Below are positions 1,429-30,159 of a stretch of 32,816 bases of DNA, piece after piece. The DNA comes from a virus (taxonomy: Duplodnaviria; Caudoviricetes). The stretch lies in the IMG/VR virus record IMGVR_UViG_3300044512_002141, positions 1 through 32,816 of that record; one strand, written 5' to 3'. Position 1 is the first letter of the stretch, and every line of letters starts with the position of its first letter. Below the pieces are notes generated by a model that was not told where the DNA came from, searched no databases, and was given only the letters and a program-made list of their open reading frames with translations. The position numbers and the translations under genes were made by a program.

Positions 1429-1863
1429 ATGACTCTTGATGAAATCTTTGACTTGTGGTCTGACGATACACAAATTGATCGTACTGAACTTGGTAATGCA
1501 GCTCTCGAACTTGCAAAGCTACATCATAAGTACTATCGTATATTCTCTCAAGAAAGACTCTTACACAAAAAACTTGAAGCTGATATGAAACAATTGAAGC
1601 TTGATAAGTATGAGTTTTTCGTAGATGGTCCAACAGAAGAACATATTGCAAAAGGTTGGAAGCTACCACCAAAAGGTCGTATTCTTAAATCAGATGCTGG
1701 TCAATATGTCGATGCAGACTCTGACATCATCGCACTTAATCTTAAGCTTGCATATCAACAAGAAAAGCTAGAACTCCTGGCAGATATTATCAAAACAATT
1801 TCTAATCGTGGATTTCATATTAAATCAGCAATTGAATGGGAAAAGTGGAAGATGGGCGGATGA
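1429..1863 (+). CDS. uvsY: Recombination mediator UvsY
   Basis: W..D..ID...L......LHHKYY N-terminus, YVDAD, ISNRGFHIKSAIEW C-terminus. Size 144 aa and synteny fit. Confidence 0.9.
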   Translation: MTLDEIFDLWSDDTQIDRTELGNAALELAKLHHKYYRIFSQERLLHKKLEADMKQLKLDKYEFFVDGPTEEHIAKGWKLPPKGRILKSDAGQYVDADSDIIALNLKLAYQQEKLELLADIIKTISNRGFHIKSAIEWEKWKMGG

Positions 1864-2729
1864 GGATAGTTGTGACTGGAGCCTGTGGTTATATAGGCTC
1901 ACATCTTGTAGTACGACTTGCCGAGTTAGGTCACAAAGTCATATCTGTTACAAATAACTTTACAGAAAATTATGAGCTGGTTAAAAAACATTCTTATGTT
2001 GTAAGAATGAATAATAACCAAGAACATGATATGTATCTTGATCAATCAGATACACTCATACATCTCGGCGGGTTTATATCAGTAGAAGAATCAATGTCAG
2101 AGCCTCTTAAGTATTATCAAGGAAATACTTCTGAGACTATTAGATTATTGAAAGAATACAAATGGGATAATGTTATCTTCGCCTCAACGGCAGCATGCTT
2201 TGATCCAATATCTCATTATGCCAAATCAAAGCTCGCATGTGAGTGGACAATTAGAGCGATAGTTCCTAACTATACTATTTTTCGTTTCTTTAATGTGGCT
2301 GGTATTAATGAAGGTCATTACTATGTCAATCCTACCACACATATCATCAGCAAGCTTGCTGAATGCGCCGTCAATAAAACAAAGTTTATCATGAATGGCT
2401 ATGACTTTGATACACCTGATAGGACATGTGTACGAGACTACGTAGATGTTAACGACCTAGTAGAAGCAATTGTGAAGGCCATAAATAAACCTGCCAACAC
2501 TGAATATGAATGTCTAGGTCAAGCGATAGGTTATTCAAACAAAGCAGTGTTACATACAATGGAATCAGTGATCGGAAAACATATCGACTTTGATTATGGT
2601 CCGCGTAGAGATGGTGATGCAGCGCGCCTCGTTGTTCCTGAAGTTTCACAATATTTAGATCCACAAAAAACATTGTGGGATATGTGCAAGTCGACTTATG
2701 GATATTTTAAGAATCTCAAAAATCAATGA
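1860..2729 (+). CDS. NAD-dependent epimerase, UDP-glucose 4-epimerase (GalE)-like
   Basis: VTGACGYIGSH Rossmann motif, FASTAA, YAKSK (YxxxK), FRFFNVAG, TCVRDYVDVNDL, RRDGD. Start taken at the ATGA overlap with the uvsY stop. Confidence 0.88.
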   Translation: MRIVVTGACGYIGSHLVVRLAELGHKVISVTNNFTENYELVKKHSYVVRMNNNQEHDMYLDQSDTLIHLGGFISVEESMSEPLKYYQGNTSETIRLLKEYKWDNVIFASTAACFDPISHYAKSKLACEWTIRAIVPNYTIFRFFNVAGINEGHYYVNPTTHIISKLAECAVNKTKFIMNGYDFDTPDRTCVRDYVDVNDLVEAIVKAINKPANTEYECLGQAIGYSNKAVLHTMESVIGKHIDFDYGPRRDGDAARLVVPEVSQYLDPQKTLWDMCKSTYGYFKNLKNQ

Positions 2730-5056: not shown

Positions 5057-6102
5057 AACTTGCATTGATTACCGATCAACATTTCGGAGTACGTAATGAC
5101 AGCATCCAATTCCACGAATATTACAAAAAATTCTATGAAGAGTTCTTTTTCCCAACTCTTAGAGAAATGGGCATCAGAGATATCGTCGAGCTCGGAGATA
5201 TTTTCGACAGGCGCAAGTATGTTAATTTTGACACCTTGTCTCGTTGCCGTGATTACTTTTTTGATCCTATCGCGCGTGACGATTTAAGCCTACATTGTAT
5301 CGTAGGCAATCACGACATCTATTTTAAGAATACTAATCGAATCAACGCTCCCGAACTTTTGCTTGGTGAGTTTGACTTACATGTATATTCTGAACCTACT
5401 GAAGTAAATTTCCATGACACAACAATTCTTATGATGCCATGGATTAATAGTCAGAACTATGATGTCGCGATGTATGCAATCGATAAATCAAAATCTGATA
5501 TATGTCTTGGCCATCTCGAGTTTCAAGGCTTTGAAATGTATCGTGGTGCAGTGATCGATCACGGTCTATCACATAAGGCATTTCAGAAGTTCGACATGGT
5601 ATGCTCAGGTCACTTTCATCATAAGTCTTCTAAAGACAATATCCATTATCTCGGCGCGCCATATGAGATGACATGGTCAGACTATGACGATCCTCGAGGA
5701 TTTCATATCCTTGATACAGAAACAAATGAGTTAACTTTTTATCAAAATCCGTTTATAATGTTCCATAAGGTTTTCTATGACGATAAGATCGGTGAACATG
5801 TGCTCTTACAAAAGTTCGATCATCTAAAAGACACACACGTAAAGGTAGTTGTCAAGAACAAGGACAATCCATATTTGTTTGATCTATTCATCGATCAATT
5901 GAATGCGTGTAATCCTGCACATATGCAAGTCGTTGAAGACAACTTTAATCTCGACATAGAGGTAGATGATAATATTATTGATGAGGCAGAAGATACTATT
6001 ACAATCATTCGTAAGTATATAGATAATCTTCAGCTGAAGGATAATCAACCTATGAATGATCTGTTCTATGATCTATACCATGAAGCATTGAGTACTGAAT
6101 AG
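5053..6102 (+). CDS. gp47: Recombination endonuclease subunit gp47 (Mre11/SbcD-like)
   Basis: Metallophosphoesterase motifs TDQHFG, LGDIFD, GNHD, GHLE, SGHFH. Confidence 0.95.
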   Translation: MKLALITDQHFGVRNDSIQFHEYYKKFYEEFFFPTLREMGIRDIVELGDIFDRRKYVNFDTLSRCRDYFFDPIARDDLSLHCIVGNHDIYFKNTNRINAPELLLGEFDLHVYSEPTEVNFHDTTILMMPWINSQNYDVAMYAIDKSKSDICLGHLEFQGFEMYRGAVIDHGLSHKAFQKFDMVCSGHFHHKSSKDNIHYLGAPYEMTWSDYDDPRGFHILDTETNELTFYQNPFIMFHKVFYDDKIGEHVLLQKFDHLKDTHVKVVVKNKDNPYLFDLFIDQLNACNPAHMQVVEDNFNLDIEVDDNIIDEAEDTITIIRKYIDNLQLKDNQPMNDLFYDLYHEALSTE

Positions 6103-7802
6103 TGTTATATTTTAAAGTAGTACGTTGGCAAAACTTCTTGTCGACGGGTAATCAATGGACAGAGATCCATTTGAATAAAGCGCCATCAACATTGATCGTT
6201 GGTGAAAATGGTGCAGGCAAATCAACAATGCTTGATGCCATTTCTTTCTCATTATACGGTAAACCATATCGTAACATTAACAAGCCACAACTTGTCAATA
6301 GTATCACCTCAAAAAGATGTCTTGTTGAGATAGAATTTTCTGCTAAAGGCAAAGAATATTTGATTCGTCGTGGTATCAAGCCAAACGTATTTGAAATTTT
6401 CTGTGATGGCAGAATGATCGATCAGAATGCATCTATTAGAGAATATCAAGAATATCTCGAGAAGAATGTACTAAAACTAAATCACAAGTCATTCACACAA
6501 ATCGTAGTGATTGGTTCTGCTAACTTTATTCCGTTTATGCAGATGAAAGTGTGGGAACGTCGTGATGTTATCGAAGATCTACTCGACATTGAAATCTTTA
6601 CGAAGATGAATAATCTCTTGAAAGAGAGAATGACGAAGAATAAAGATGATGTCATTGCAGCAAAGTACAATACTGATATGCTCGAACAAAAGATTACGCT
6701 GACAAAAAAACATATGAACGAGATTATGTCAATGCAAAAGTCTGATCGCGATGCTAAGATTGCTAAGATCAAAGACTTGAATAGTCATCTATCAGATCTA
6801 CAATTTACATACGAGGGTAGACTGAACACTGCAAAACATTTAAACGATTCAATCATTGATAAAGAAAAAGTCAAAGGTAAGAATGATAAGCTAAAACAAT
6901 TGAAGAGTCAACTCGACTACAAAGTTTCAAATATTCAAACGTCTATAGATTTCTTTAAAGATCACGACACGTGTCCGACATGTAAACAAGATATCGATGA
7001 GGATTTTAAAGAAGAACACATCTGTGAACAACAAGAAAAACAAATTGAAATCAAATCTGGCATCGATGAGTTGATGAACCATTTTGGTCAAGTAGGACAG
7101 AGACTAGAAGAAATATCTGCGATACAACAAACTATCAATGATGTGAATCAAACTATCATCAAACTAAACAGTGAGATGACAACAACACGAAATCATATTC
7201 AAGAGATTGAAGCTACACTAAAAGAAGTTCCAACGTTACAAGAAGCCGAGGATCTTGATGATCTGAATGGTGAGCTAATGAAAATGCAATCATTGCATGA
7301 GACATTGCTACTACAAAAAGAGAGATATGAAATTGCATCGTCTCTACTCAAAGATGGTGGTATCAAGTCGAAGATCATCAAGCAGTATGTACCTATCATC
7401 AACAAGCTAATGAATAAGTACCTCGCTGCGATGGAGTTTTTTGTACAGTTCGAACTTGATGAACAATTTAACGAAAAGATCAAGTCGAGGTTCAGGGATG
7501 AATTTACATACGACTCGTTCTCCGAAGGTGAAAAGATGCGTATTGATCTTTCACTCCTTTTCACATGGCGCGCCGTCGCCAAGCTAAGAAACTCTGTAAC
7601 GACTAACCTTTTGATCATGGACGAAGTATTTGACTCCTCCCTCGATACAACAGGTACCGATGAGTTCTTGAAATTGATTACACAACTGACACAAGACACA
7701 AACGTCTTTGTCATCTCACACAAAGGTGACCAACTCTTCGATAAGTTCCACAGTAACATTCGATTCGAGAAGGTAAAAAACTTTTCGCAGATCGCTGCGT
7801 AG
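6102..7802 (+). CDS. gp46: Recombination ATPase gp46 (Rad50/SbcC-like)
   Basis: GENGAGKS Walker A, coiled coil with CPTC zinc hook, FSEGEK signature, LIMDEVFDSSLD, ISH. GTG start. Confidence 0.96.
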   Translation: MLYFKVVRWQNFLSTGNQWTEIHLNKAPSTLIVGENGAGKSTMLDAISFSLYGKPYRNINKPQLVNSITSKRCLVEIEFSAKGKEYLIRRGIKPNVFEIFCDGRMIDQNASIREYQEYLEKNVLKLNHKSFTQIVVIGSANFIPFMQMKVWERRDVIEDLLDIEIFTKMNNLLKERMTKNKDDVIAAKYNTDMLEQKITLTKKHMNEIMSMQKSDRDAKIAKIKDLNSHLSDLQFTYEGRLNTAKHLNDSIIDKEKVKGKNDKLKQLKSQLDYKVSNIQTSIDFFKDHDTCPTCKQDIDEDFKEEHICEQQEKQIEIKSGIDELMNHFGQVGQRLEEISAIQQTINDVNQTIIKLNSEMTTTRNHIQEIEATLKEVPTLQEAEDLDDLNGELMKMQSLHETLLLQKERYEIASSLLKDGGIKSKIIKQYVPIINKLMNKYLAAMEFFVQFELDEQFNEKIKSRFRDEFTYDSFSEGEKMRIDLSLLFTWRAVAKLRNSVTTNLLIMDEVFDSSLDTTGTDEFLKLITQLTQDTNVFVISHKGDQLFDKFHSNIRFEKVKNFSQIAA

Positions 7803-7810
7803 GAGGAAAC

Positions 7811-8023
7811 ATGGCATATAAAGTTTTAGTACAAGTATCTGAAGACGGGGACTGGGATCCAGTTCTCGATATGAAGTTAAGTCGTACACGTTCTGTACCT
7901 CGTCTATTTTTAGAAGAAGAGGATGCACAATATTTTATCGATCAACAACCAAAGCAAGAAGATGTTGGTTATAAGCGACAATTTAAAATTGAAGAGGCAC
8001 AGGATTGGACTGATGTCGGATAA
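7811..8023 (+). CDS. Hypothetical protein
   Basis: AGGAGG RBS, 70-aa ORF. Confidence 0.7.
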   Translation: MAYKVLVQVSEDGDWDPVLDMKLSRTRSVPRLFLEEEDAQYFIDQQPKQEDVGYKRQFKIEEAQDWTDVG

Positions 8024-8531
8024 ACTACATATCGTACCAGTATCTCATCCAGCATTTAATGCTCCTATACAACAGTTCGAATTTGAATCTGATGTTGATA
8101 GGCATGAGTTAGTAAAAGAGATGACAGAAATTATGCAAAAGGCTGGTGCTGCTGGTCTTGCTGCTAATCAGTTAGGTCTGGAGCATCGCGTCTTTGTTTT
8201 GAATACAGAACCAGATGTATTGGCTTGTTTTAATCCACGTATTGTACATGAGTCTGAAGAGTATGCTGTACTCGAAGAAGGATGTTTATCATATCCTGGA
8301 ATGTGGGTAAAAATCAGGCGACCGTCATGGATTCGTGTAAGATTTCAAGATGTGAATGGTGTAATGCAAACAGAAAATCTCAATAAGATGCCAGCTCGGG
8401 CATTTATGCATGAACTAGATCATCTTGACGGTGTGAATTATTTGATGAGAGCCAAAAAAATTCATTTAGATAAAGCGAAGAGAAAGATGAAACTCATCGA
8501 TCGCAAACTGAAGAGGATGCAACTTGCTTGA
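8013..8531 (+). CDS. def: Peptide deformylase
   Basis: Three PDF motifs: AAGLAANQ, EGCLS, HELDHL. Start placed at ATG 8013 rather than 7923. Confidence 0.92.
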   Translation: MSDKLHIVPVSHPAFNAPIQQFEFESDVDRHELVKEMTEIMQKAGAAGLAANQLGLEHRVFVLNTEPDVLACFNPRIVHESEEYAVLEEGCLSYPGMWVKIRRPSWIRVRFQDVNGVMQTENLNKMPARAFMHELDHLDGVNYLMRAKKIHLDKAKRKMKLIDRKLKRMQLA

Positions 8532-8772: not shown

Positions 8773-9198
8773 ATGAGTAAGAATTGGGTTAAAGACATCA
8801 ATAAGATGCATGAGAAGTATGGCGTACATGATTGGGTTGAGAAGAATCAACATCAACTCAAACAGTTCCTTGATTTTCGTTTGCGGTTCCTTTACGAAGA
8901 AGCCAACGAGACATCGCTAGCTGTTGATGCACGTGATGCTGAAGAAATCGTAGATGGTCTGATTGACATCTGTGTTGTGGCTATCGGTACACTTGACGCC
9001 TTCGGTGTTGATGCGAACAAAGCATGGGATCGAGTCTATCGAGCCAACATGCGCAAAGAGGTCGGTACTAAAGACAGTCGACCTAATCCCCTCGGGCTAC
9101 CTGATCTGGTAAAGCCCAAAGGCTGGCGAAATCCATCCCATAAGAACAATCATGGTCTCCTGGGTGCAATGCCGTACTCGGACCCTAATGAGTTCTAA
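8773..9198 (+). CDS. All-alpha NTP pyrophosphohydrolase (MazG/PRA-PH-like), possible dUTPase/dCTPase
   Basis: EEANE...EEIVDGLID acidic motif, AWDRVYRANMRK, DLVKPKGW. Confidence 0.82.
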   Translation: MSKNWVKDINKMHEKYGVHDWVEKNQHQLKQFLDFRLRFLYEEANETSLAVDARDAEEIVDGLIDICVVAIGTLDAFGVDANKAWDRVYRANMRKEVGTKDSRPNPLGLPDLVKPKGWRNPSHKNNHGLLGAMPYSDPNEF

Positions 9199-11523: not shown

Positions 11524-12005
11524 TAGATGCAAGCGCTGTAATTACTGACTTCAATGGTGTTTATGATTGGATAGTCACTGAAGAGTTTATTAAACATCGC
11601 GATATCTTTGCTGAACAATTATCAGGTAAAGGTACAGTACGAAGAGCTGATTGCACTGTTGCTGAATACGTTTTGGCTGAACACATACCAAGTTTTAAAT
11701 TAACACCAACAAGTCAATTCGAAAATGATTTGTTATGCGAAACTTATAAATATCTAGATGCTAAACAGTTTGCAAAAGCTGGTGTAAAAGTTGGTGATTT
11801 TCCAATAGAAAGTGTAAAGAAAGGCAAAATAAATTATTTTCCAGTGTGGAAATTTCTGCCTAATAATCAATATCCTGGACCACTGATTGAAAGTCAAGGT
11901 ATAGATATTAAATTGTTAGGATTAGTTCCAGCTGAATTAGCAATAGAAAATTTACAAGACGTAAAAGGTGAAAAAAGATTTATATTTCCTGAGGAATTAT
12001 TATGA
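11520..12005 (+). CDS. Hypothetical protein, possibly PD-(D/E)xK nuclease-like
   Basis: ATGA overlap with the remnant stop. AEYVL...NDLL...YLDAKQ resembles the E...D...DxK spacing, weakly. Confidence 0.55.
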   Translation: MIDASAVITDFNGVYDWIVTEEFIKHRDIFAEQLSGKGTVRRADCTVAEYVLAEHIPSFKLTPTSQFENDLLCETYKYLDAKQFAKAGVKVGDFPIESVKKGKINYFPVWKFLPNNQYPGPLIESQGIDIKLLGLVPAELAIENLQDVKGEKRFIFPEELL

Positions 12006-12376
12006 AAGAATCTCTTAAAGTCCTGCAAGAATGTGCAGAAGTACAACTCAAAAAGTCTAACGACTATCAGAATGAGTACTCACGCATTCGTCAAGCAGAT
12101 TACTATCCTCGTGGCATTGCCACTATCACAGATCTTATCTACGCTAAAGTTCTTCGTATGCAATCAGTCATCGAAGCTAGCGAAAAAGATCCTGAGTATC
12201 AACCTAACTACGAGTCAATCGAAGACTCAGCTAAAGACTTGATCAACTATGCATCGTTCGTAGTATCATACATGCGTGGTAAGATGGAAGGTCAAGAACC
12301 TGATCGTGACATGCTCAATCGAGTAACTACTATTCCTAACAAAATGCCGGAGACGCCACTTGTTAAAAGTGAATGA
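12002..12376 (+). CDS. DUF1599-like nucleotide-modification-associated protein
   Basis: KKSNDY, K..R, ESIEDSAKDLINYA motifs. Directly upstream of the hydroxymethylase. Confidence 0.72.
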   Translation: MKESLKVLQECAEVQLKKSNDYQNEYSRIRQADYYPRGIATITDLIYAKVLRMQSVIEASEKDPEYQPNYESIEDSAKDLINYASFVVSYMRGKMEGQEPDRDMLNRVTTIPNKMPETPLVKSE

Positions 12377-13034
12377 AATACGTCAACACTTTATTGACGA
12401 ACTAAAAGCAGAACGATTTACAACTGATCGACTTGGTGATAAGACTATCGAGTTGATCGGCGCTTCGTTCCTTGCCGATGAACCTGCAGTTTTTGGTGAA
12501 CCAAACGAAGAGTATATCGAAGCCGAACTCGGTTGGTACTACTCTCGGTCGACTAACATCGACGACATCTATGCCAATCTGAAAGAACCACCAAAGGCGT
12601 GGCAGTATGCAGCCAATGCACATGGAGAAATCAATTCTAATTATGGACATCTTATCCTTTCCGACAAATACTACAACCAATATGAACGATGTTTGGCCGA
12701 ACTCATGGCAAATCGAGATACCCGCCGAGCATGCATGGTCTACAACCGACCAAGTATCTGGCTCGAATACAATGAAAATGGTAAAAGTGATTTCATATGT
12801 ACGAACGCCGTCACCTACTATATCCGAGGGAATAAGCTCCACAGCTGTGTACAGATGCGTTCCAACGACGTCATCTTCGGTTACAGAAATGACTACGCAT
12901 GGCAAAAGCACGTCTTAGATAAAATGGTTGATGATCTCAATCATAAAAACTTTGATCATGTAGAACCAGGTGACATCTATTGGCAAGTGCAGAATCTCCA
13001 CGTTTATGAAAAACATTTTGATCTGGTAAAGTAA
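12360..13034 (+). CDS. gp42: dCMP hydroxymethylase, T4 gp42 family (thymidylate synthase fold)
   Basis: Colinear with T4 gp42 as recalled: KTIELIGASFLADEP, GEINSNYG, SDFICTN (catalytic Cys), MRSNDVIFGYRNDYAWQ (Asp at the dCMP-specificity position), LHVYEKHF. Confidence 0.9.
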   Translation: MLKVNEIRQHFIDELKAERFTTDRLGDKTIELIGASFLADEPAVFGEPNEEYIEAELGWYYSRSTNIDDIYANLKEPPKAWQYAANAHGEINSNYGHLILSDKYYNQYERCLAELMANRDTRRACMVYNRPSIWLEYNENGKSDFICTNAVTYYIRGNKLHSCVQMRSNDVIFGYRNDYAWQKHVLDKMVDDLNHKNFDHVEPGDIYWQVQNLHVYEKHFDLVK

Positions 13035-13219
13035 TGATCGAGAGTAAACGAATTCTATTTAGTTGTGCAGATTCAGACAACTCTACTGTAACTTTTGAGT
13101 TTAACGCAATCGAAATGTCCACATTTGAAATGTTTATGCAGTGGGTTCGTTTTATGAATGCGATTGGTTATATTCTTGATCCAGAAGAAATGGAAGAAAT
13201 GTGGAATGGGATTAAATAA
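13034..13219 (+). CDS. Hypothetical protein
   Basis: TAATG-coupled 61-aa ORF. Confidence 0.65.
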   Translation: MIESKRILFSCADSDNSTVTFEFNAIEMSTFEMFMQWVRFMNAIGYILDPEEMEEMWNGIK

Positions 13220-13220
13220 T

Positions 13221-13523
13221 ATGGAAAAGAGTTATATCGAAATTGATGCAGGTCCATGGTTGACTTGCGACGGTGACATTGAAGTTTGCGTTTACATTGG
13301 AGAAGGTACATGTGAACCAAATCATACTTCAAAGGTAAGTCTCAAAGAATTAGTAGATCGTGAGTTAGAAAGTATGATTCCAGGTGTTATTCCTAAGGAT
13401 GGTGATACGAAATCTGGGAAGATCGCAGAGTATCACAAAGATGATGTCAAACGACTGCTAGAAAGTTTGAGAGAGTTGTACTATTATGCAGGTGGTCGAG
13501 CAGAGGAATTGGGTTGTGAGTAA
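13221..13523 (+). CDS. Hypothetical protein (MEKSYIEID...)
   Basis: ATG just after the previous stop. Confidence 0.65.
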   Translation: MEKSYIEIDAGPWLTCDGDIEVCVYIGEGTCEPNHTSKVSLKELVDRELESMIPGVIPKDGDTKSGKIAEYHKDDVKRLLESLRELYYYAGGRAEELGCE

Positions 13524-13749
13524 TGCAATTTTTGATTTAGAACAACAAATCCAAGAATGCTGGAAAGTCACAGATGATATTGACATGGTAACTAAGTATC
13601 TAGTAGATGATTCAGATGGATATACCGATGATGATGTTATGAATAAGTATTTTGCCATCAAAGAATTATACGAGCTTAAATTTAATCAGATGTGGGCTAC
13701 TTTCGAAACAGTATGCAAAGAATATCATGAAGCGAAAAAGAAATGCTAG
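13516..13749 (+). CDS. Hypothetical protein
   Basis: GAGGA RBS and GTG start. FDLEQQIQECW..TDDI looks like a recurrent phage motif. Confidence 0.7.
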   Translation: MSNAIFDLEQQIQECWKVTDDIDMVTKYLVDDSDGYTDDDVMNKYFAIKELYELKFNQMWATFETVCKEYHEAKKKC

Positions 13750-13762
13750 TTAGAGGTTTAAA

Positions 13763-13975
13763 ATGTCATACAGAGTTCACAACGACAACAACGGAACATA
13801 TCAGGACGTAGAAGGCTATGATGAACTCATACGTCTGCAGTGGGAAGCCAAAGGATCATATGTTCCCAGAGTAACATACACACCGCCTCATGATTGTGAC
13901 ATTTGGGGTTATGTTAACCCGCATACTATGAATAACGATTTTGCCACATCAACTGATGATGTGATAATTGGGTAA
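13763..13975 (+). CDS. Hypothetical protein
   Basis: GAGG RBS, 70 aa. Confidence 0.6.
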   Translation: MSYRVHNDNNGTYQDVEGYDELIRLQWEAKGSYVPRVTYTPPHDCDIWGYVNPHTMNNDFATSTDDVIIG

Positions 13976-13980
13976 TATGA

Positions 13981-15147
13981 ATGATTGAACCAACTCGATA
14001 TTACGATGAGTTCCTTAAGTATTTTGATCTAGCACTCAGTCAACAGAAAAAGTGTAACGTATCAGTAGGCGCTCCGTACGGTATGATCAAACATGCTGAG
14101 AGTGACATGGGCGATGATCTGATGGAACACGTTGAGCTATACGATGTAGTTGAACGTAAGTACGCTGGCTTCTCTCAGATCGTCAATGATGTGTTCTATG
14201 GTTGGACTGATAAGCATCCATATTGGAAGAAGATGGAAGCTGGTATGGTGACACGCCAGCGTGAGCAGGTCGCAAAAGATTGGACAGGCAAACACGCTGA
14301 CTTCGGTTTACCTGAATGGCTCTACATCTTCATCCTGCATCGTGTGACAGGCTCTGCGATTAACTACGCAACCAAACCTTCAGGTTATCACAACACCATT
14401 CTCTTTAATCTTCATCAGTCGAAAAACATCGAAGAGATGGTTGGACTGATGCGGCATTATCCTGCACCATTTTATACATCAGTTGGTTATCAGTTCCCTG
14501 CATTTCCTAAACCACAAGATGGTTACAAAAAAGGCGGTGACTATTTTCTCGGTGAGTATGCACCTCGTTTGGCAAGAGAAATGGCAGAGTGGCTAGAATC
14601 AGGTGGCAAGCGAGATCTACGAGAGATTGGCGAGTTTATGCTCGAGTGGAATGTCAAGAATGGATTACGTAAGTATCATTTTCAATACGCTGCAGTCATA
14701 GCTGACGTTGCAGATTGGTATCCACAGTATGTAAACTTAGACAGCATGTTCTATTACGGTACAAATGCTGTAGAATGTATATCATATCTTGCAAAGCCTA
14801 CACAGAAGATGAAGAAAGAAGTCTTTCTCGACGCTGTGATGGAAAAGATATATAATGATACAGGAAGTGTACCGTATAATGCTGAAGATGTATGTTGTGA
14901 CTTCATTCGTTATGTTGAGAACTATGTACGCCCAGGTCCGGACTACGATCATCTCGACTATGACAATTTGTGGTCATCATGTGGCATCAAAGACCATCCG
15001 TACGGTAGACAGAAGTATATGCTTGAACTCGGTCTTGTCGATACATTTAATGGTATGAAGAATCATCCATCAGATGATGTTATCCTCAAGGCAAATAATA
15101 TGAACGTTTCTGAATATCAAAAATTATGTCACTCACTCACTTCTTAG
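13981..15147 (+). CDS. Putative aG/PT-pyrophosphorylase / amino acid:DNA transferase-like base-modification enzyme (paralog 1)
   Basis: C-terminal FQYAAVIADV...DSMFYYGTNAVECI...NAEDVCCDFIRY fits the F.A....D / G.GA..GL / E..LCE..KY pattern of this helical family. Located next to gp42. Confidence 0.55.
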   Translation: MIEPTRYYDEFLKYFDLALSQQKKCNVSVGAPYGMIKHAESDMGDDLMEHVELYDVVERKYAGFSQIVNDVFYGWTDKHPYWKKMEAGMVTRQREQVAKDWTGKHADFGLPEWLYIFILHRVTGSAINYATKPSGYHNTILFNLHQSKNIEEMVGLMRHYPAPFYTSVGYQFPAFPKPQDGYKKGGDYFLGEYAPRLAREMAEWLESGGKRDLREIGEFMLEWNVKNGLRKYHFQYAAVIADVADWYPQYVNLDSMFYYGTNAVECISYLAKPTQKMKKEVFLDAVMEKIYNDTGSVPYNAEDVCCDFIRYVENYVRPGPDYDHLDYDNLWSSCGIKDHPYGRQKYMLELGLVDTFNGMKNHPSDDVILKANNMNVSEYQKLCHSLTS

Positions 15148-16124
15148 GCGAACACGAACACGACATCCAATATCCAAAAATTGCCGAAGTAGAATTAAAG
15201 AACGGCAAACCAATTGAAAGTTGGATGAAAGACTGGTGTCAAGAAGCTCGAACGAATAAGTTTTTCGAGTTTTGTCGTGCCTATGACGAACGTCAAGATT
15301 TTCTACTCAAGAATAACTATCAACAGTTCTCACATCGTTTGCACTGGCATGAGTGTCCGTTTGTCGACGAGATGAAGAAAGAAACTAACAGACGTAAGTT
15401 GATCGAGGCTTGTGTCTTATTCTCATTTAGTAATGAGCATTGGCAGACGTTCAGAGAGTGGCGAGATCATGGCTATGATGGCATGAAGGTACGGTTCTCA
15501 AACTATCGCCATGCGCGTTCTGATCTCTTTCAGATCTATTATCCGAAAGATACGAAGGTCAAAGATTGGCTAATCGAAGTACCACGTCGCGTAGCTCTCG
15601 ATATTGATTCGATGTTTGTTGAACGACAAACTATTCGACCATTTACAATGATGGAATTTGCTAAGAAGATGAACATCATCATGGTACGCGACTATGGTTT
15701 CCGGAATGCCATGTATCCATCGAAGAATGCTGCTCGCCATATTGCAATGTCACATCCTAAACTGGTAGATCCCGACTCGTTCCTACATGGTGGTACGGGT
15801 TATTTTGATGGACTATCACAGGTGTTTAACTGTCCTCACCTCATGAGTAAGTCGAAGTATGAGATCGACGAGGATGGTCAGTACGTCCCTATGAATAAGT
15901 GGGCAGAGATGCAAGTACAACATATGGATTATTTAAAGAATCACCCGAATAATCCTATACACACTCATCAGTATCTCAACTTAGAAGACAAGTTATGTAT
16001 GCATTATAAGTTTATGTCGATGAAACTTGGTGAGAAAAAGCAAACAAAGATGATCCCATATGATTGGGTTTATCCACAAAAATGGTCATTAAAGACCAAT
16101 AGGTATGATCGTGTTTCTTCTTGA
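15126..16124 (+). CDS. Putative aG/PT-pyrophosphorylase-like protein (paralog 2)
   Basis: SHPKLVDPDSFLHGGTGYFDGL...LNLEDKLCMHYKF aligns by eye with paralog 1 (WYPQYVNLDSMFYYGTNAVECI...YNAEDVCCDFIRY). Confidence 0.5.
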   Translation: MSLTHFLGEHEHDIQYPKIAEVELKNGKPIESWMKDWCQEARTNKFFEFCRAYDERQDFLLKNNYQQFSHRLHWHECPFVDEMKKETNRRKLIEACVLFSFSNEHWQTFREWRDHGYDGMKVRFSNYRHARSDLFQIYYPKDTKVKDWLIEVPRRVALDIDSMFVERQTIRPFTMMEFAKKMNIIMVRDYGFRNAMYPSKNAARHIAMSHPKLVDPDSFLHGGTGYFDGLSQVFNCPHLMSKSKYEIDEDGQYVPMNKWAEMQVQHMDYLKNHPNNPIHTHQYLNLEDKLCMHYKFMSMKLGEKKQTKMIPYDWVYPQKWSLKTNRYDRVSS

Positions 16125-16722
16125 TAAAGCGACTGAATACATCAGGGAGCCATGGGAACTAGCAGTCATCGATGATTGTCTACCACAAGAGACAGCCGAC
16201 TATCTACGTGATAATTGGCCTACACAATTCGATGACGATATTAATCCAAATTATTTTCAAAGATTGGGTACAGCAAAAATGCATGACCCTATATTCAAAG
16301 AATTTTTTGAAGAGAATTGGAAAAGACGAGAAGAAATTAAAGTGATGGCTCATAGTTATTTGGGTTTATGCACTACCACATTTGATAATCAGCTATCACG
16401 ATGGAACTGGATGTTTTGTAACAGCGATGACCACACTAAACTAGTACGTGACTGGCATACAGATAATGTTGACAAGAAGATACAATTTATTTTGTATCTC
16501 GGAGAGGATACAGATTATACTACTTTCGAAATGATGGATGATGAAGAAAATGTAAAGAGTTTGCCATTCAAACATAACAGATTGATATTTTGGCATGCAA
16601 CTGAACACACATGGCATCGTTTCTATTTTACAAAATTTCCACGCAAGACATTGAATTTGACTTGTTTATATAATCGTTCTGAGGAACACTATTGGGGTTT
16701 AGATGAGTATAAAAATACGTAG
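16105..16722 (+). CDS. 2OG-Fe(II) oxygenase superfamily protein
   Basis: VIDDCLP N-terminus, WHTD (HxD), ILYL, NRLIF, TWH, RKTLN. Confidence 0.8.
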   Translation: MIVFLLDKATEYIREPWELAVIDDCLPQETADYLRDNWPTQFDDDINPNYFQRLGTAKMHDPIFKEFFEENWKRREEIKVMAHSYLGLCTTTFDNQLSRWNWMFCNSDDHTKLVRDWHTDNVDKKIQFILYLGEDTDYTTFEMMDDEENVKSLPFKHNRLIFWHATEHTWHRFYFTKFPRKTLNLTCLYNRSEEHYWGLDEYKNT

Positions 16723-16927
16723 AGCATTAATAGAAGCAATAACTGATACTTTGCTCGCTACTCCACTCAATATGTTGATCAGCTGGGTAATTTTATGGTT
16801 TGCATTCCAATACTTTTGGGGTCCAACAGTTACAATGCTTATACAAACTGGTATAATGTTTATCTTTGCAGTGAGTCGTAAGGTATATCTGCGTTTATAT
16901 TTTGAGAAGAGATATGAGTCACAATAA
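16703..16927 (+). CDS. Small two-TM membrane protein
   Basis: GAGGA/GGGG upstream. Two hydrophobic segments and a C-terminal RKVYLRLYF. Confidence 0.65.
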   Translation: MSIKIRRALIEAITDTLLATPLNMLISWVILWFAFQYFWGPTVTMLIQTGIMFIFAVSRKVYLRLYFEKRYESQ

Positions 16928-17798
16928 CCATATTATTGATGGGGTAAATAAAGATGTCGGTATCTTCGGATACGAGGCAGCAAAAGATTATTTCTTGGAA
17001 ATGTGTGATGGATGGACACCATACAATGATGACCCAGTTGTCAAAGTACACGATGGAGTGCGAGTTGTCAGGGACGACCTTACCGTTGGAACCAAAACTC
17101 GAGCGGGTGATCTTCTTGCTGCTCGTTGCCCGACTGATACCATGGTGTATTGTCAGCCTCGGACTGGTCTTGCCGGCGTATCTCTTCTTGACGTAGCTAA
17201 ACATCACAATAAGAAGGTGACGTTGTTTATGCCATCTTCAAAAAGAGTGTCGTTACATCAAGCTTGTTGTATTGAACGAGGAGCAGATGTACAATTTCAT
17301 CGTATTGCTGCGATGCCAAACCTAAATAAGAAGGCAAAAGAATATGCAGAAAAAGAAGGTCACTACTTCATTCCGCTTGGTCTCAGACATGAGCTCGCCA
17401 CCGCCGGAATTGTTTACACAGCTTCTCGAATACCTGAGCCTGAAGTGGTATACGTTGCTATCTCGACCGGTGTTCTTGCTCGAGCTCTTCAAATTGCATG
17501 GCCTCGAGCTGAGTTTCGTTGCGTTGCTGTTGCTCGCAACCTAAAAGCTGGAGAATTAGGTAGAGCTGAAGTAATATCAGAACCTTTACAGTTTACTCAA
17601 TCAGAGAAGAAAGAAAATCTACCTCCGTTTCCCACTATCGATACATATGACGGAAAAGTGTGGAAGTGGATACCTAAAAATACTAGTCAGGATATACTTT
17701 TCTGGAACGTAGGTACAGAACCTGTTTTACAAGATGAGACGATTTATGATAGAATAGATTCATATCGTCAGTGGGAGAAAGATCAATGCGCGGCTTAG
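16914..17798 (+). CDS. PLP-dependent enzyme, fold type II (Trp synthase beta / cysteine synthase-like)
   Basis: VRVVRDDLTVGTKTR (Schiff-base Lys), VAISTGVLARAL phosphate-binding loop, TYDGKVW, LFWNVG. Confidence 0.8.
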   Translation: MSHNNHIIDGVNKDVGIFGYEAAKDYFLEMCDGWTPYNDDPVVKVHDGVRVVRDDLTVGTKTRAGDLLAARCPTDTMVYCQPRTGLAGVSLLDVAKHHNKKVTLFMPSSKRVSLHQACCIERGADVQFHRIAAMPNLNKKAKEYAEKEGHYFIPLGLRHELATAGIVYTASRIPEPEVVYVAISTGVLARALQIAWPRAEFRCVAVARNLKAGELGRAEVISEPLQFTQSEKKENLPPFPTIDTYDGKVWKWIPKNTSQDILFWNVGTEPVLQDETIYDRIDSYRQWEKDQCAA

Positions 17799-18892
17799 TA
17801 GCGTCACCATTTAATGTAATATCAAAATCAATGGACAGCCATCGTGCTGCTCAAGGTGTTATCTATGCTAGTCAGCTAAAAGAAGCTGATGCTAGTCGCA
17901 GTATAGATATCTGTATGTCTGGGTTCCTCTATAAGGAAGATTGGAACCAGTATGATGAACTGTACGTATATCATGGGAATGATTGGGGTGGCTCTCTGAA
18001 TCTGTTTGGTGGATTGCAAAATTATAGTGGTATCTACAACTTCGTCAATTTCTCAAAGTTCAAAGGCACGGTGTACTCGCTCGTCATCGATATGGTCGAC
18101 TACTATGCCATTATGAAAGAGAAACTTGATAAGGCCAAAGAAAAAGGTCAAGAGTATAACGCTGAGTGGAACGAAGTTGATTGGGATAATCTTAAGCGTA
18201 TGTGTACAGAAGCCAAGACAATCGATCCCAATGCATTGAACCCGTCTCGTAAGATTGCTATCGGTGATAGTCATGCTATTTGCATGTATCGTCCTGGTTG
18301 GCAAAACATCTCTGTTCCATTTAAAACACTACACGGAGCATTGAAAGAAGGACTTGAAAGTTTCTTACCAAAAGGTGCATATAATGAGATTGAATTTTAT
18401 TTTGGTAACATCGATATTCGCCATCACCTCTGTCGACAAGATAATCCAGAAGAGGCAACAAAAGAATTAGTACGTAAGTATATCGAACAAGCAATGGCTC
18501 TTGCTAATTTTTATAACGCAAAAGTAAAACTATACGAGCCGCTACCTATTGAAAATCCTAGTCGTAAGATTCCAAAAACTGGTTGGCATAAAGGCGCACC
18601 ATTTTGTGGCGATTGGGCATCACGTAACTTTATTCGCAAACTATTTCGTGAAGAAATTAGAAAGAATCAAGGACAAGGAGTTGGTGTTGAATTATATGAG
18701 TGGGTAGGAGAGATGATAAATAATCAAGGTGAGTTAGATTTTGAATATATGGAAAAACCCCAATCCGTACACCTCTCTCGTCGATGGTATCCTCATTGGC
18801 AAGGTTACGAGTACAGTCACGCACCATATATTGACTACACACCTATTCCAGAGAGTGAGAATAAACCCACATCTCTCGAGGCGTTTTTCTAG
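17786..18892 (+). CDS. Conserved phage protein with C-terminal SGNH-hydrolase-like domain
   Basis: IAIGDSHA (GDS), FGNIDIRHH (GxxD), SVHLS (terminal His). Confidence 0.6.
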   Translation: MRGLVASPFNVISKSMDSHRAAQGVIYASQLKEADASRSIDICMSGFLYKEDWNQYDELYVYHGNDWGGSLNLFGGLQNYSGIYNFVNFSKFKGTVYSLVIDMVDYYAIMKEKLDKAKEKGQEYNAEWNEVDWDNLKRMCTEAKTIDPNALNPSRKIAIGDSHAICMYRPGWQNISVPFKTLHGALKEGLESFLPKGAYNEIEFYFGNIDIRHHLCRQDNPEEATKELVRKYIEQAMALANFYNAKVKLYEPLPIENPSRKIPKTGWHKGAPFCGDWASRNFIRKLFREEIRKNQGQGVGVELYEWVGEMINNQGELDFEYMEKPQSVHLSRRWYPHWQGYEYSHAPYIDYTPIPESENKPTSLEAFF

Positions 18893-18921
18893 TTTACAAA
18901 TGCTTGTTTTTATGGTAAGAT
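18892..18921 (+). promoter_or_regulatory. T4 early-type sigma70 promoter
   Basis: GTTTACA-N17-TAAGAT upstream of a GAGG RBS. Confidence 0.6.
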
Positions 18922-18942
18922 ATTCTAAAGTGAGGATATATT

Positions 18943-19905
18943 ATGGAACTTAAAATTGCAGTCGAAGAACTGCGAAAATATAAATTGTTTATTGCAACTC
19001 CAATGTATGGAGCAATGTGTTCTGGTATGTACACAAGAGCTATGGCAGATCTATCTGCTAAAATGGCAAAGTATCAGATTCCACTCCAGTTTTATTATCT
19101 GTTCAATGAATCATTGATTACTCGAGCTCGTAACTATTGTGTTGACGAGTTTATGCGGTCAGACTGCACACACATGCTATTCATTGATTCTGATATTGGT
19201 TTTAAAGCAGACGATGTAATTGCAATGATGGGTTTAATGATTCAAAACCCAGATGAATACGATGTGATGTGTGGTCCATATCCTAAAAAGACTATCTCTT
19301 GGGAAAAGATTGTGCAAGCTGTTAATCAAGGTGTAGCAGACGAGAATCCAAACGTTCTAGAAAATTATGTTGGCGATTTTGTATTCAATCCTATCAAACG
19401 CAAAGCAATTAAGATCAGTGATCCTGCAGAAGTAGCTGAAGGTGGTACTGGATTCATGATGATTCAAAAGCGGGTGTTTGAAGAGTATGCACAAAAATAT
19501 CCTCAATTTTATTATAAGCCAGATCATGTCCGCACTGAAAACTTTGATGGCAGTCGCGATATTATGGCATACTTCGATGCATTGATTGATGATAAATCAC
19601 AAAATCTTGTGCATGAAATTGAAGCATTCTTTGATAAAAATCCCGATGCTTCCAAAGAGGAAGTGATTAAATTTTTAGCAGATAAGAAGACAGGCATTCA
19701 TACTGCAGAGTATTCGAATAGATATTTGTCCGAAGACTACATGTTTTGTTATAATGTCAGACGTATGGGAAGGAAAGTGTGGATGTGTCCTTGGATTCAA
19801 CTGAAACATATCGGTTCTTATACATTCGGTGGTTCGTTATCACATATCGCTCAGATCAATGCTAGCGCAACAGCAGATCCATCTAAACTTGGTAAGAAAA
19901 AGTAG
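18943..19905 (+). CDS. GT-A fold glycosyltransferase-like protein
   Basis: LFIATPMYG, ESLITRARN, HMLFIDSDI (DxD), GTGFMMI, YLSEDYMFC, LKHIG. Confidence 0.78.
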   Translation: MELKIAVEELRKYKLFIATPMYGAMCSGMYTRAMADLSAKMAKYQIPLQFYYLFNESLITRARNYCVDEFMRSDCTHMLFIDSDIGFKADDVIAMMGLMIQNPDEYDVMCGPYPKKTISWEKIVQAVNQGVADENPNVLENYVGDFVFNPIKRKAIKISDPAEVAEGGTGFMMIQKRVFEEYAQKYPQFYYKPDHVRTENFDGSRDIMAYFDALIDDKSQNLVHEIEAFFDKNPDASKEEVIKFLADKKTGIHTAEYSNRYLSEDYMFCYNVRRMGRKVWMCPWIQLKHIGSYTFGGSLSHIAQINASATADPSKLGKKK

Positions 19906-19916
19906 GAAACTATATT

Positions 19917-20573
19917 ATGAAACTCAATACACGTACTATTCAAGTACTCAAAAACTTTGCGTCTATTAACCCGTCCATTCAGTTTTCTGAAGGCACGAGT
20001 CTCAAGACCATTTCACCAAACAAGACGATGATGGCTAAAGCCAAACTCGAAGATGTTATTCCTTCGACTTTTGCTATCTATGATTTGTCTCGTTTCCTTG
20101 GTGTTGTATCATTGTTCGAAGATCCGACTTATCAGATCGAAGATCGTATGGTTAACATCGGCGCACCTGGTCGAACAGTCAGTTATACATTCGCTGATCC
20201 TTCTACCATCATCACACCTCCCGATCGAGAGATTGTATTGGAAGAACCTGATGTAGTGTTCGAGCTCAAGCATGAAAACTTTGCTGAGATTATGAAAGCA
20301 CTCGGTGTGATGTCTTTCCCTGATCTCGTCGTTGTTGGCGAAGATGGTAATATCTTCCTTCGTGCAACTGACACTAAGAATCCATCTTCTGATAAATATG
20401 ATATCGAAGTTGGAACTACCGATCGTACCTTTACCGCAGTTTTCAAAACAGAAAACGTTAAGATCTTGCCGTCCTCCTACACGGTTAGTCTTTCCTCGAA
20501 GGGCATTTCTCACTTTGTGTCCGACGATGTAGAGTATTGGATCAGTCTCGAAGCTAACTCGACCTTCGAGTAA
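19917..20573 (+). CDS. gp45: Sliding clamp gp45
   Basis: MKL...T..VLKNFASINPSI, FAIYDLSRFL, YWISLE. Confidence 0.94.
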   Translation: MKLNTRTIQVLKNFASINPSIQFSEGTSLKTISPNKTMMAKAKLEDVIPSTFAIYDLSRFLGVVSLFEDPTYQIEDRMVNIGAPGRTVSYTFADPSTIITPPDREIVLEEPDVVFELKHENFAEIMKALGVMSFPDLVVVGEDGNIFLRATDTKNPSSDKYDIEVGTTDRTFTAVFKTENVKILPSSYTVSLSSKGISHFVSDDVEYWISLEANSTFE

Positions 20574-23346: not shown

Positions 23347-23476
23347 AACCTTTCCGCTGATCGAAACATTTCCAACAGAATATCTTACACGTCAATTACC
23401 TGATAACAAATTCGGTATCAGGTTCTTGAACTATGTGTCAAAAGAAGATGCAGAGGTTGTAAATGAAGCGAACTGA
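23282..23476 (+). CDS. Hypothetical protein (start uncertain, 23282 or 23291)
   Basis: KIIKCSDHSKWYSTHVGKTF...; fills the gap to the next gene. Confidence 0.55.
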   Translation: MELLKIIKCSDHSKWYSTHVGKTFPLIETFPTEYLTRQLPDNKFGIRFLNYVSKEDAEVVNEAN

Positions 23477-23738
23477 AGATATTGAATTCTACCATGGCAG
23501 CGCGCTGATGTCAAAAGCCACCGAAGAATGTGGTGAATTGGTTCAGGCTATCTCGAAGTATGCTAATAAAGGTGGTAGACGAAACGAAAATAAAATACTT
23601 GAAGAAGCTGCAGATGCAATGGTAATGATAACCGCTCTAATAAAATATCTTGAAGCTGATGAAGATAAATTCTTCAAGCGAATCGAGAAGAGCAAAAAGA
23701 AATTTGACAGATACTATGAGGAGGATTATAGTGAGTGA
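23463..23738 (+). CDS. MazG-like nucleotide pyrophosphohydrolase
   Basis: EECGELVQAISK...ILEEAAD motif. Confidence 0.8.
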   Translation: MKRTEDIEFYHGSALMSKATEECGELVQAISKYANKGGRRNENKILEEAADAMVMITALIKYLEADEDKFFKRIEKSKKKFDRYYEEDYSE

Positions 23739-24015
23739 AGTCGATAATGTAGGAACTCTCGTTACACTTGTAACAGCAGGTGGCGAGATGGTGGGTCGAT
23801 ATCTTGGTGAAGATGACGATAGTATTAAGATTGAATCCCCGCGAGCTTTCGTGCAAACAGAAAAAGGTGTTGGTTTTGCACCGTCTGTATGTTTGACTGG
23901 TAAGCGTGAACCTGAAATGGTATCATTCGGTAAGTATCAAGTAATTCTTATTGTTGAGACTAATGCAGAGATTGAGAAGTTGTGGCTTCAAGCGACAACT
24001 GGTTTGGTAGTATGA
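23731..24015 (+). CDS. Hypothetical Sm-like fold phage protein
   Basis: GGAGG RBS and GTG start. VTLVT..GEMVGR...PR, ending ATTGLVV. Confidence 0.7.
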   Translation: MSEVDNVGTLVTLVTAGGEMVGRYLGEDDDSIKIESPRAFVQTEKGVGFAPSVCLTGKREPEMVSFGKYQVILIVETNAEIEKLWLQATTGLVV

Positions 24016-24587
24016 GAGATAAACTAATCCTCACTGATTGTGATGGAGTAATGCTCGATTGGATGTATTCTTTCGATCAATGGATGAAACGCCATGGTTA
24101 TCGTATCCAAAATGCAGGTGAATATGACATTGGTAAAAAGTATGAAGTAGGTTTTGTTGAGAAGAAAAAACTTACTCGTATGTTTAATGAGTCTGCTTCC
24201 ATTCGTAAGATACCACCACTACGAGATGCTATTAAGTATATTCGCAAATTGCATGAAGAACATGGATATGTGTTCCATGTAATCACATCATTAAGTGATG
24301 ACGAGTATGCCCAACATCTCAGGACGAAGAATCTTTGTGAGACGTTTGGTCATACAGTCTTCGAGAAATATGTGTACCTCGACTGCGGTGCTGATAAGGA
24401 TGAAGCACTTGCTAAGTACGAAGGTAGCGGTTGTTATTGGATCGAAGACAAACCAGAGAATGCAATCGCCGGCCAAAAAGTTGGTCTAAATACTTTGCTG
24501 ATGGCGCACGGTCATAATGTTAATCAAAAAGAAGCCATGGTCCGTGTACAAAACTGGAAAGAGATTTACGAGATTATTGTTGGATGA
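24012..24587 (+). CDS. HAD-superfamily phosphatase / 5'-nucleotidase-like (T4 30.2-like)
   Basis: ILTDCDGVMLDW (DxDGV), VITS, K, WIEDKPEN. Confidence 0.82.
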   Translation: MRDKLILTDCDGVMLDWMYSFDQWMKRHGYRIQNAGEYDIGKKYEVGFVEKKKLTRMFNESASIRKIPPLRDAIKYIRKLHEEHGYVFHVITSLSDDEYAQHLRTKNLCETFGHTVFEKYVYLDCGADKDEALAKYEGSGCYWIEDKPENAIAGQKVGLNTLLMAHGHNVNQKEAMVRVQNWKEIYEIIVG

Positions 24588-29303: not shown

Positions 29304-29596
29304 AGTATTTTTTACTATTCATGATTTTCCCGCTCATGTTATATGCAACAACTGTAGAGAGTATTGAGACAGAAGGGAAAGCAAGATCTAAAGATCAATC
29401 ATTACAAAATGCATATATTGCTGCTCATTTTCAATGCAATCGAAAAAGACTGTGGGCAAACCTTGATACATTAGTTGTCAAAGATGTTTACACTAGCCAA
29501 TATAAAATTGCAGGAGGTCGTAAAAGTATTACCGATTACTCCACAGTTGTAGAATTTACATGCACATCCGAGTATAAGAGGACACCGTCTGAATGA
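29300..29596 (+). CDS. Putative secreted protein
   Basis: Signal-peptide-like N-terminus and two Cys. Confidence 0.65.
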   Translation: MKYFLLFMIFPLMLYATTVESIETEGKARSKDQSLQNAYIAAHFQCNRKRLWANLDTLVVKDVYTSQYKIAGGRKSITDYSTVVEFTCTSEYKRTPSE

Positions 29597-30159
29597 GAGA
29601 TTGGACGGCAAAATCTATGACGAAGTTCTTTCGGTTCTTCGCTGATACATTTTTTGCTAAACGATACGGACATAGAGCAGTTGTACTTGAGACAATTGCT
29701 GGTGTTCCTGGTATGGTGGCAGGCATGTTGATTCATCTACGTAGTCTTCGTAAGATGGAACGTGGTAATGGTCGTATGATTACCGAAATGTTAGCAGAAG
29801 CAGAGAACGAGCGTAAACATCTCATGTTCTTCATTGAGATTGCTCAACCCAATCAGTTTGAAAGATTTCTCATTGTGATGGCGCAATTTATCTTTTGGCA
29901 TTTTTATCTCGTGTTTTATATTTTTGCTGATAAGACTGCACATAAGATGATAGCGTATTTTGAAGAAGAAGCAGTACGATCATATGATGAATATATCAAA
30001 CTGATTGAAGATGGTATAATCGAGAATGTACAAGCACCTCAACTTGCTATAGAATACTATATGCTAAATAAAGATGCAACGTTACTCGATATGGTAAGAT
30101 GTGTACGAGACGATGAACGTAAACATAGTAAGGTGAATCATAGAATAGCAGGTTTTTGA
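29593..30159 (+). CDS. aox: Alternative oxidase (di-iron ubiquinol oxidase)
   Basis: RYGHRAVVLETIAGVPGMV, HLRSLR, EAENERKHL, YFEEEAVRSY, VRDDERKH. All six di-iron ligands are present. Confidence 0.93.
   Translation: MRDWTAKSMTKFFRFFADTFFAKRYGHRAVVLETIAGVPGMVAGMLIHLRSLRKMERGNGRMITEMLAEAENERKHLMFFIEIAQPNQFERFLIVMAQFIFWHFYLVFYIFADKTAHKMIAYFEEEAVRSYDEYIKLIEDGIIENVQAPQLAIEYYMLNKDATLLDMVRCVRDDERKHSKVNHRIAGF

Follow-up and report, generated by a model that had tools for sequence, protein, structure and literature searches.

A widespread gene cassette of T4-like phages that probably directs a kinase-free hypermodification of cytosine

Why would a T4-like phage place relatives of thymidine-hypermodification enzymes around a gene for a cytosine hydroxymethylase? 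The question is raised by IMG/VR virus record IMGVR_UViG_3300044512_002141, of which we analyzed positions 1 to 32,816 (the window), a 32.8-kb T4-like fragment with the gene order gp23, uvsY, uvsW, gp55, gp47, gp46, cassette, gp45, gp44, gp62, regA. The cassette block lies on the + strand between gp46 (6102–7802) and gp45 (19917–20573), and intergenic distances from 12002 to 20573 run from −38 to a maximum of 123 nt, most being overlaps or gaps of 50 nt or less. An initial annotation, which proposed that these genes attach an amino acid or amine to 5-hydroxymethylcytosine (5hmC) and then tailor it, had placed its genes correctly: all of the open reading frames (ORFs) are present, co-oriented and flanked by gp46 and gp45. 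The core set comprises Nmad1, gp42, the helical proteins A388 and B332, a pyridoxal phosphate (PLP) enzyme and the two-domain protein X373 (Table 1). Our data indicate that the cassette is a real, widespread and apparently uncharacterized variant of pyrimidine hypermodification, cytosine-directed and probably kinase-free, and we consider it likely that the DNA of this phage carries some non-sugar hypermodification of 5hmC. Since the genome is represented by the window alone, genome-wide absences rest on relatives.

Cytosine hypermodification typically consists of sugar transfer (PMC13326640, available text). The T4 glucosyl-5hmC system comprises gp42, gp56 and the alpha- and beta-glucosyltransferases (AGT and BGT), and the available portion of PMC8670742 describes a 5hmC carbamoyltransferase that makes 5-carbamoyloxymethylcytosine and is encoded with a dCMP-type thymidylate synthase (TS) homolog, PRA-PH and dCMP deaminase. 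Thymidine hypermodification in phages M6, ViI, PaMx11, PhiW-14 and SP10 uses, according to the accessible parts of PMC8989533 and PMC11472151, a dUMP hydroxymethylase, a 5-hydroxymethyldeoxyuridine (5-hmdU) DNA kinase, an amino acid:DNA transferase (AADT/aGPT-Pplase2) and a PLP decarboxylase. Across these partial sources, the cytosine hypermodifications described are sugars or carbamoyl; transfer of amino acids appears for thymine alone, in a kinase-dependent form. The titles and abstract openings surveyed, a coverage that excludes most subscription papers, described no 5hmC-acting enzyme of the SGNH or AADT type.

The hydroxymethylase of the cassette is homologous to T4 dCMP hydroxymethylase over its full length and contains the GYRND motif; Cys147 and Asp178 are both kept in 63/63 aligned homologs from related loci. 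An Asp at the equivalent position is the mark of dCMP-using enzymes (PMC8670742, available text), and sequence comparison strongly supports a true ortholog of T4 gp42 of the dCMP type, as the initial annotation had read it. The gene called DUF1599-like at the outset (Nmad1) does match that family, marginally below the Pfam cut-off, and the PRA-PH/MazG-like protein likely depletes dCTP from the nucleotide pool. A Walker-A motif search of G002 and G004 (L243–L260), near-complete relatives that encode gp42, turned up no gp1-like deoxynucleoside monophosphate (dNMP) kinase, which leaves the phosphorylation of hydroxymethyl-dCMP (hm-dCMP) there unexplained.

Linkage was surveyed in a pool of 228 viral loci, made up of an initial set and the best 80 matches from each of three further searches. 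Near-full A388 occurs in 181 of them, 72 with at least 3.5 kb upstream and at least 4.5 kb downstream, which reduce to 31 distinct loci at 90% identity. X373 is present in 31 and B332 in 21 of these, counts that are biased upward because the pool was drawn with A388, B332 and X373 queries, whereas those for the PLP enzyme (30) and gp42 (29) are unbiased; PRA-PH (within 9 kb of A388) occurs in 27, Nmad1 in 26, gp45 in 18, the GT-A gene in 16 and the 2-oxoglutarate (2OG) oxygenase in 1. Anchoring on X373 instead (37 distinct loci) recovered A388 in 36 and the PLP enzyme and gp42 in 35 each. X373 is thus the member most tightly linked to A388, a role beyond the SGNH call it had first received. 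Exceptions are L079 and L080, with X373 but neither A388 nor the PLP enzyme nearby, and L156, with A388, B332 and the PLP enzyme but no X373 in a short flank; one of the two A388 loci without nearby gp42 belongs to a genome (G003) that has gp42 elsewhere. The cassette is found at differing genome sites and in differing gene order, and the anticipated linkage with gp42 held through these rearrangements. Matching viral stretches are estimated at 1100 for the X373 motifs and 780 for those of A388. That there is no cytosine hypermodification at all, with A388 and B332 acting as repair glycosylases or the set acting on another base or polymer and merely lying beside gp42, is very improbable: the gp42 linkage survives relocation and reordering, and the invariant ExxxC motif, the homology to M6 gp52 and the BGT-like domain described below all indicate C5-modified pyrimidines.

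Two genes proposed as tailoring enzymes fared differently from the core. The 2OG oxygenase gene is present, with a Pfam match under the cut-off, and its occurrence in 1/31 loci led us to reject it as a core part with a tailoring role. The GT-A gene is likewise present, with a weak Pfam match; it occurs in exactly the 22/37 X373 loci that have gp45 nearby and is absent from 15/37, and in phage DLP_6, which has no gp42, it again lies beside gp45, so that it too was rejected as a core part. DUF7220 and three small ORFs at 13158–13975 were rejected as conserved cassette parts. These distributions bear on a reading in which 5hmC receives a sugar through the GT-A protein or another glycosyltransferase, and X373 O-acetylates that sugar. 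Many SGNH enzymes O-acetylate sugars, and the fold matches of X373 include the sugar O-acetyl enzymes PatB and OatA; the GT-A gene adjoins the cassette here, a nucleotide-sugar epimerase/dehydratase lies at window 1836–2729 between uvsY and uvsW, and relative G004 encodes a GT1 protein. We nevertheless regard sugar modification as quite improbable, given that the GT-A gene follows gp45 rather than X373, occurs without gp42 in DLP_6, and would leave A388 and the PLP enzyme unexplained.

Table 1 Features of the cassette and adjoining genes in the window.
Feature	Position	Strand	Basis
PRA-PH/MazG-like nucleotide pyrophosphohydrolase	8773..9198	+	PF01503, E 3.3e-9
Nmad1/DUF1599 nucleotide-modification-associated protein	12002..12376	+	PF07659, E 5e-5, 24 bits vs cut-off 25
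gp42-type dCMP hydroxymethylase (Cys147, Asp178)	12360..13034	+	T4 gp42, PDB 1b49, E 1.3e-74
A388, aGPT-Pplase/AADT-like (helix-hairpin-helix-glycosylase-like) helical protein, E302xxxC306	13981..15147	+	Profile, motif, fusions
B332, optional A388 paralog, E287xxxC291	15126..16124	+	Predicted fold resembles that of the glycine:DNA transferase PaMx11 gp46
2OG-Fe(II) oxygenase-like gene, passenger	16105..16722	+	PF13640, E 0.0037, under cut-off
Fold-II PLP enzyme, homologous over its full length to the DNA-amino-acid decarboxylase M6 gp52	16914..17798	+	hhalign
X373, BGT-like N-domain (~residues 1–150), SGNH domain (Ser167, His334), C-terminal clamp-type peptide	17771..18892	+
GT-A-like lineage gene that accompanies gp45, probably outside the cassette	18943..19905	+	Pfam, E 0.05–0.06

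Recurrent neighbors absent from this block, counted over loci that were not de-duplicated, are DUF3310 (104 loci; L148:7727–8056), a uracil-DNA glycosylase-like gene (86; L205:3478–3903), dCMP deaminase (80; L043:6191–6658) and a C5 cytosine methylase (37; L039:3870–5075).

A388 and B332 resemble the aGPT-Pplase type of protein, a name reportedly coined by Iyer et al. in 2013. A388 has 936 homologs, and E302 and C306 are kept in 69/69 of those spanning 23–96% identity; over the A388 and B332 tests the Glu-x3-Cys motif is intact in 69/69 and 119/119 aligned homologs. The spacing equals that of the catalytic residues Glu243 and Cys247 of PaMx11 gp46 (PMC11472151, available text), which supports a transferase-type reading, and the best Protein Data Bank (PDB) match of the predicted B332 model is that same amino-acid:DNA transferase. 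The claim that the two proteins are aG/PT-PPlase-like paralogs therefore stands as to paralogy, recovered by deep-alignment profile comparison with ExxxC aligned (prob 92, E 6.4e-7), and as to the B332 fold, but their family assignment does not reach Pfam cut-offs. Pairwise BLAST (E 0.22) and a shallow profile comparison gave no paralogy signal. PF18723 is found in 11–36% of members of A388's Atlas neighbors, yet it passes its cut-off in none of the four relatives G001–G004 (M6 and ViI pass) and is met only by the X373-fusion partners P0243–P0245; PF18724 matched 1/68 A-family representatives, weakly (19.3 bits vs cut-off 26.2). The A388 and B332 profiles had no significant match to the X373-helical fusion of Aeromonas phage 44RR, tblastn of both proteins against 50,697 phage records gave no match, and PDB sequence searches with the A388, B332 and X373 profiles gave none that was significant.

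The family profile of the PLP enzyme aligns with M6 gp52 over 221 columns (hhalign prob 95.8, E 6.9e-9), and K61, present in 58/58 homologs, aligns to M6 K36, the proposed Schiff-base lysine (PMC8989533 and PMC11472151, accessible parts); ViI gp226 is matched only weakly. The fold-II PLP assignment is thus well founded. M6 gp52 decarboxylates the amino-acid–thymine adduct in DNA and requires a free alpha-amine (same partial sources). In cultured phages the closest PLP homologs are linked to N6/N4 DNA methylase domains, by fusion in Erythrobacter phage ZS04 (L020:2326–4764) and by adjacency in Microcystis phage Mae-JY30 (L021:7009–8600), which suggests another PLP-linked base modification.

X373 had been described as SGNH-like, and its fold bears this out for the C-terminal half, with Ser (block I), Gly (II), Asn (III) and His (V) all present and an invariant E328 six residues ahead of H334. 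The N-terminal domain matches BGT weakly but consistently (PF09198 E 0.0022, under the cut-off; hhalign prob 36 over 48 columns; Foldseek to 1qkj E 2.5e-4), and the C-terminal UDP-glucose-binding domain of BGT has no counterpart, the SGNH domain taking the place of this sugar-nucleotide half. A gp43-like clamp-type tail is found at 61/98 X373 termini, compared to 0–1 in each of six control families. X373 differs from the SGNH enzymes PatB, OatA-C, sialate O-acetylesterase and platelet-activating factor acetylhydrolase (PAF-AH) in its putative DNA-acceptor domain, in its clamp-type tail and in lacking the block-V DxxH acid. Thirteen distinct fusion proteins join X373 to a helical domain, nine to an A-family domain and four to a PF18723-type (HMUDK_hel) domain, with GDSH in 13/13. 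All A-family representatives longer than 600 aa are such fusions (7/7); a search for longer X373 homologs returned eight proteins, four with an A-family domain, three with PF18723 over the cut-off and one (P0242) with only a low-complexity extension, which was excluded from the fusion count. In 44RR2.8t, ORF233c combines X373 with a weak PF18723 domain. As the helical domain partners the kinase in thymine systems (by its Pfam name and the SP10 entry), X373 occupies the activator's slot; it likely stands in for the base-activating kinase and is predicted to be a 5hmC-DNA acyltransferase. Two further observations concern the fusions: P0245 is tripartite, combining FkbM-type methyltransferase, HMUDK_hel and X373 domains, and a sodium:solute symporter gene directly ahead of ORF233c in 44RR2.8t (L019:7408–11388) might supply substrate.

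Whole-genome checks in the four relatives (91–99% complete) found gp42 and the PLP enzyme in 4/4. A base-activating kinase elsewhere in the genome had been anticipated, but these relatives held no true match: a search with the M6 gp54 kinase recovered its control and a single weak match, rejected as spurious because it lies inside a holin gene of G004. The ViI 5-hmdU kinase gp243 was found in 0/5 genomes in a search without a positive control, and no kinase-like ORF emerged when G002 and G004 were screened for Walker-A motifs; the gp1-like dNMP kinase also went undetected, so divergent kinases may escape this census. With T4 as control, AGT was found in none of the three relatives tested, where X373 was the sole BGT-domain match.

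The cassette thus resembles the thymidine systems in its TS-family hydroxymethylase, its paralogous same-fold helical proteins with ExxxC and its M6 gp52-homologous PLP enzyme, and differs from them in the dCMP-type hydroxymethylase, the absence of a detected kinase homolog, the SGNH/BGT-N protein fused to a helical domain, the position of A388 and B332 outside PF18723 and PF18724, and the lack of any radical-SAM or flavin enzyme among the genes seen. With the T4 system it shares the gp42 ortholog, and the N-domain of X373 bears a weak resemblance to the BGT acceptor domain, but neither AGT nor a full BGT was found in the three near-complete relatives or in 44RR. The conserved association of a cytosine-directed hydroxymethylase with relatives of thymidine-hypermodification enzymes is, on these grounds, well supported.

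Our best model, which we advance tentatively, has X373 O-acylate 5hmC, after which a Cys enzyme exchanges the acyloxy group for an amino acid that the PLP enzyme finally decarboxylates. As the orthology strongly suggests, gp42 would make hm-dCMP for incorporation into DNA by replication. The X373 tail may then dock on the gp45 clamp while its BGT-like domain engages 5hmC in new DNA, and Ser167 and His334 would O-acylate the hydroxymethyl to give a leaving group, parallel to the kinase-made phosphate of thymine systems. A388 (and B332 in loci that have it) would use its ExxxC cysteine to attack C6 and expel the acyloxy group, the amino acid would add to the exocyclic methylene, and the PLP enzyme would decarboxylate the adduct. 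Linkage through the side chain, as with serine, seems the likelier form of the adduct, given that M6 gp52 works only on a free alpha-amine and that the genes seen here include no radical-SAM isomerase. The modification may protect the DNA from host nucleases. Support comes from gp42 orthology, co-occurrence, the B332 fold, M6 gp52 homology, the X373 fusions, the lack of a kinase or AGT in relatives and the clamp tail. Possibly, then, a clamp-riding SGNH enzyme lets many hundreds of environmental T4-like phages furnish cytosine with an amino acid or amine in a kinase-free way, with a reduced form accounting for cytosine modification in Aeromonas phages 44RR, 31 and 25.

Several observations weigh against this model. 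The fold match of B332 to the PaMx11 transferase is distant (TM 0.34, E 0.018), A388 and B332 lie below detection against PF18723 and PF18724 (PF18724 with no match at E ≤ 1), and their profiles have no significant match to M6 gp51 or gp55. M6 gp55, which is dispensable for glycine transfer (PMC8989533 and PMC11472151, accessible parts), also carries ExxxC, so the motif alone is no proof of transferase activity. In X373, position 331, where the block-V acid would stand, is K, Q, S or R, and the SGNH fold, with top matches mainly to hydrolases, cannot tell transferases from esterases. The X373-helical fusion of 44RR occurs without a PLP homolog, and Tenacibaculum phage PTm1 has no detectable helical partner for its X373 homolog. 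The kinase census is incomplete, as the undetected gp1-like kinase illustrates, and a small P-loop kinase-like ORF lies within 4 kb in 7/228 loci. Finally, G004 also encodes a carbamoyltransferase domain (L255:2107–3669) and its GT1 elsewhere (98 proteins scanned); these could modify 5hmC independently, possibly making two 5hmC-modifying systems in one phage.

Some of these points would fit an ester as end product. In that case X373 would load 5hmC with an acyl or aminoacyl group that the PLP enzyme produces or trims, and A388 and B332 would serve solely as base-presenting helpers, in the manner of the clade-1 helical protein that accompanies the 5-hmdU kinase. The fusions use A-family and PF18723 (kinase-helper) domains interchangeably, 44RR has only gp42 and the fusion, with no PLP homolog, M6 gp55 has ExxxC and is not the transferase, and esterification of 5hmC with a carbamoyl group has a precedent (PMC8670742, available text). 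We find this reading somewhat unlikely, as the PLP enzyme, homologous to one acting on amino-acid–base adducts in DNA, occurs in 30/31 loci, and the two paralogs in 21/31 recall the pairing of helper and transferase in thymine systems. The hydrolase matches and the incomplete census would instead suit a reversed order, in which A388 activates 5hmC (alone or with an unrecognized kinase) and adds the amino acid for decarboxylation by the PLP enzyme, leaving X373 to acylate the amine or hydrolyze a protecting group, much as an acetyltransferase performs the final acetylation in the PaMx11 pathway. This order is the more doubtful of the two: X373 is present where the PLP enzyme is absent (L150; 44RR), its BGT-like acceptor domain points to unmodified 5hmC as substrate, and the cassette has no conserved kinase. 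The acylation-first model shares with the carbamoyltransferase system a non-sugar O-acyl-type group on 5hmC, differing in its unrelated enzyme family and in SGNH, AADT-fold and PLP partners, which the available text of PMC8670742 does not mention.

If this model is true, amino-acid-transfer chemistry would reach beyond thymine to cytosine by way of a different activator, and an SGNH enzyme would gain a DNA base as substrate; an enzyme tagging 5hmC with an amine would serve 5hmC mapping. Cultured phages with X373 homologs (44RR, 31, 25 and PTm1) make the system directly testable. Petrov 2010 (PMC2993671, available text) counts phages 44RR, 31 and 25 among those with gp42 but no glucosyltransferase, and treats as unsettled the question whether such phages (RB69 and JS98 being the examples) carry other modifications. 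The cassette bears on it, as all three encode an X373 homolog. In 44RR, gp42 and gp56 are present, and searches for AGT, BGT and PLP homologs found none. PTm1 encodes a stand-alone full X373 homolog (L261:6557–7576) and a divergent TS homolog (L263:1180–1857) whose specificity residue is Asp.

Other features of the window lie outside the cassette. The octamer TATAAATA, which we take from its consensus to be of the T4 late-promoter type, stands at 11745–11752, 257 nt upstream of Nmad1, with only two further copies in the window, at 670 and 22133. Downstream of regA, a MazG-like pyrophosphohydrolase and an NT5C-like nucleotidase (23463–24587) might contribute to nucleotide-pool control. A peptide deformylase gene lies at 7923–8531, and genes for an alternative oxidase (PF01786, E 2e-66) and, behind it, another 2OG-Fe(II) oxygenase, the second in the window, occupy 29593–30962.

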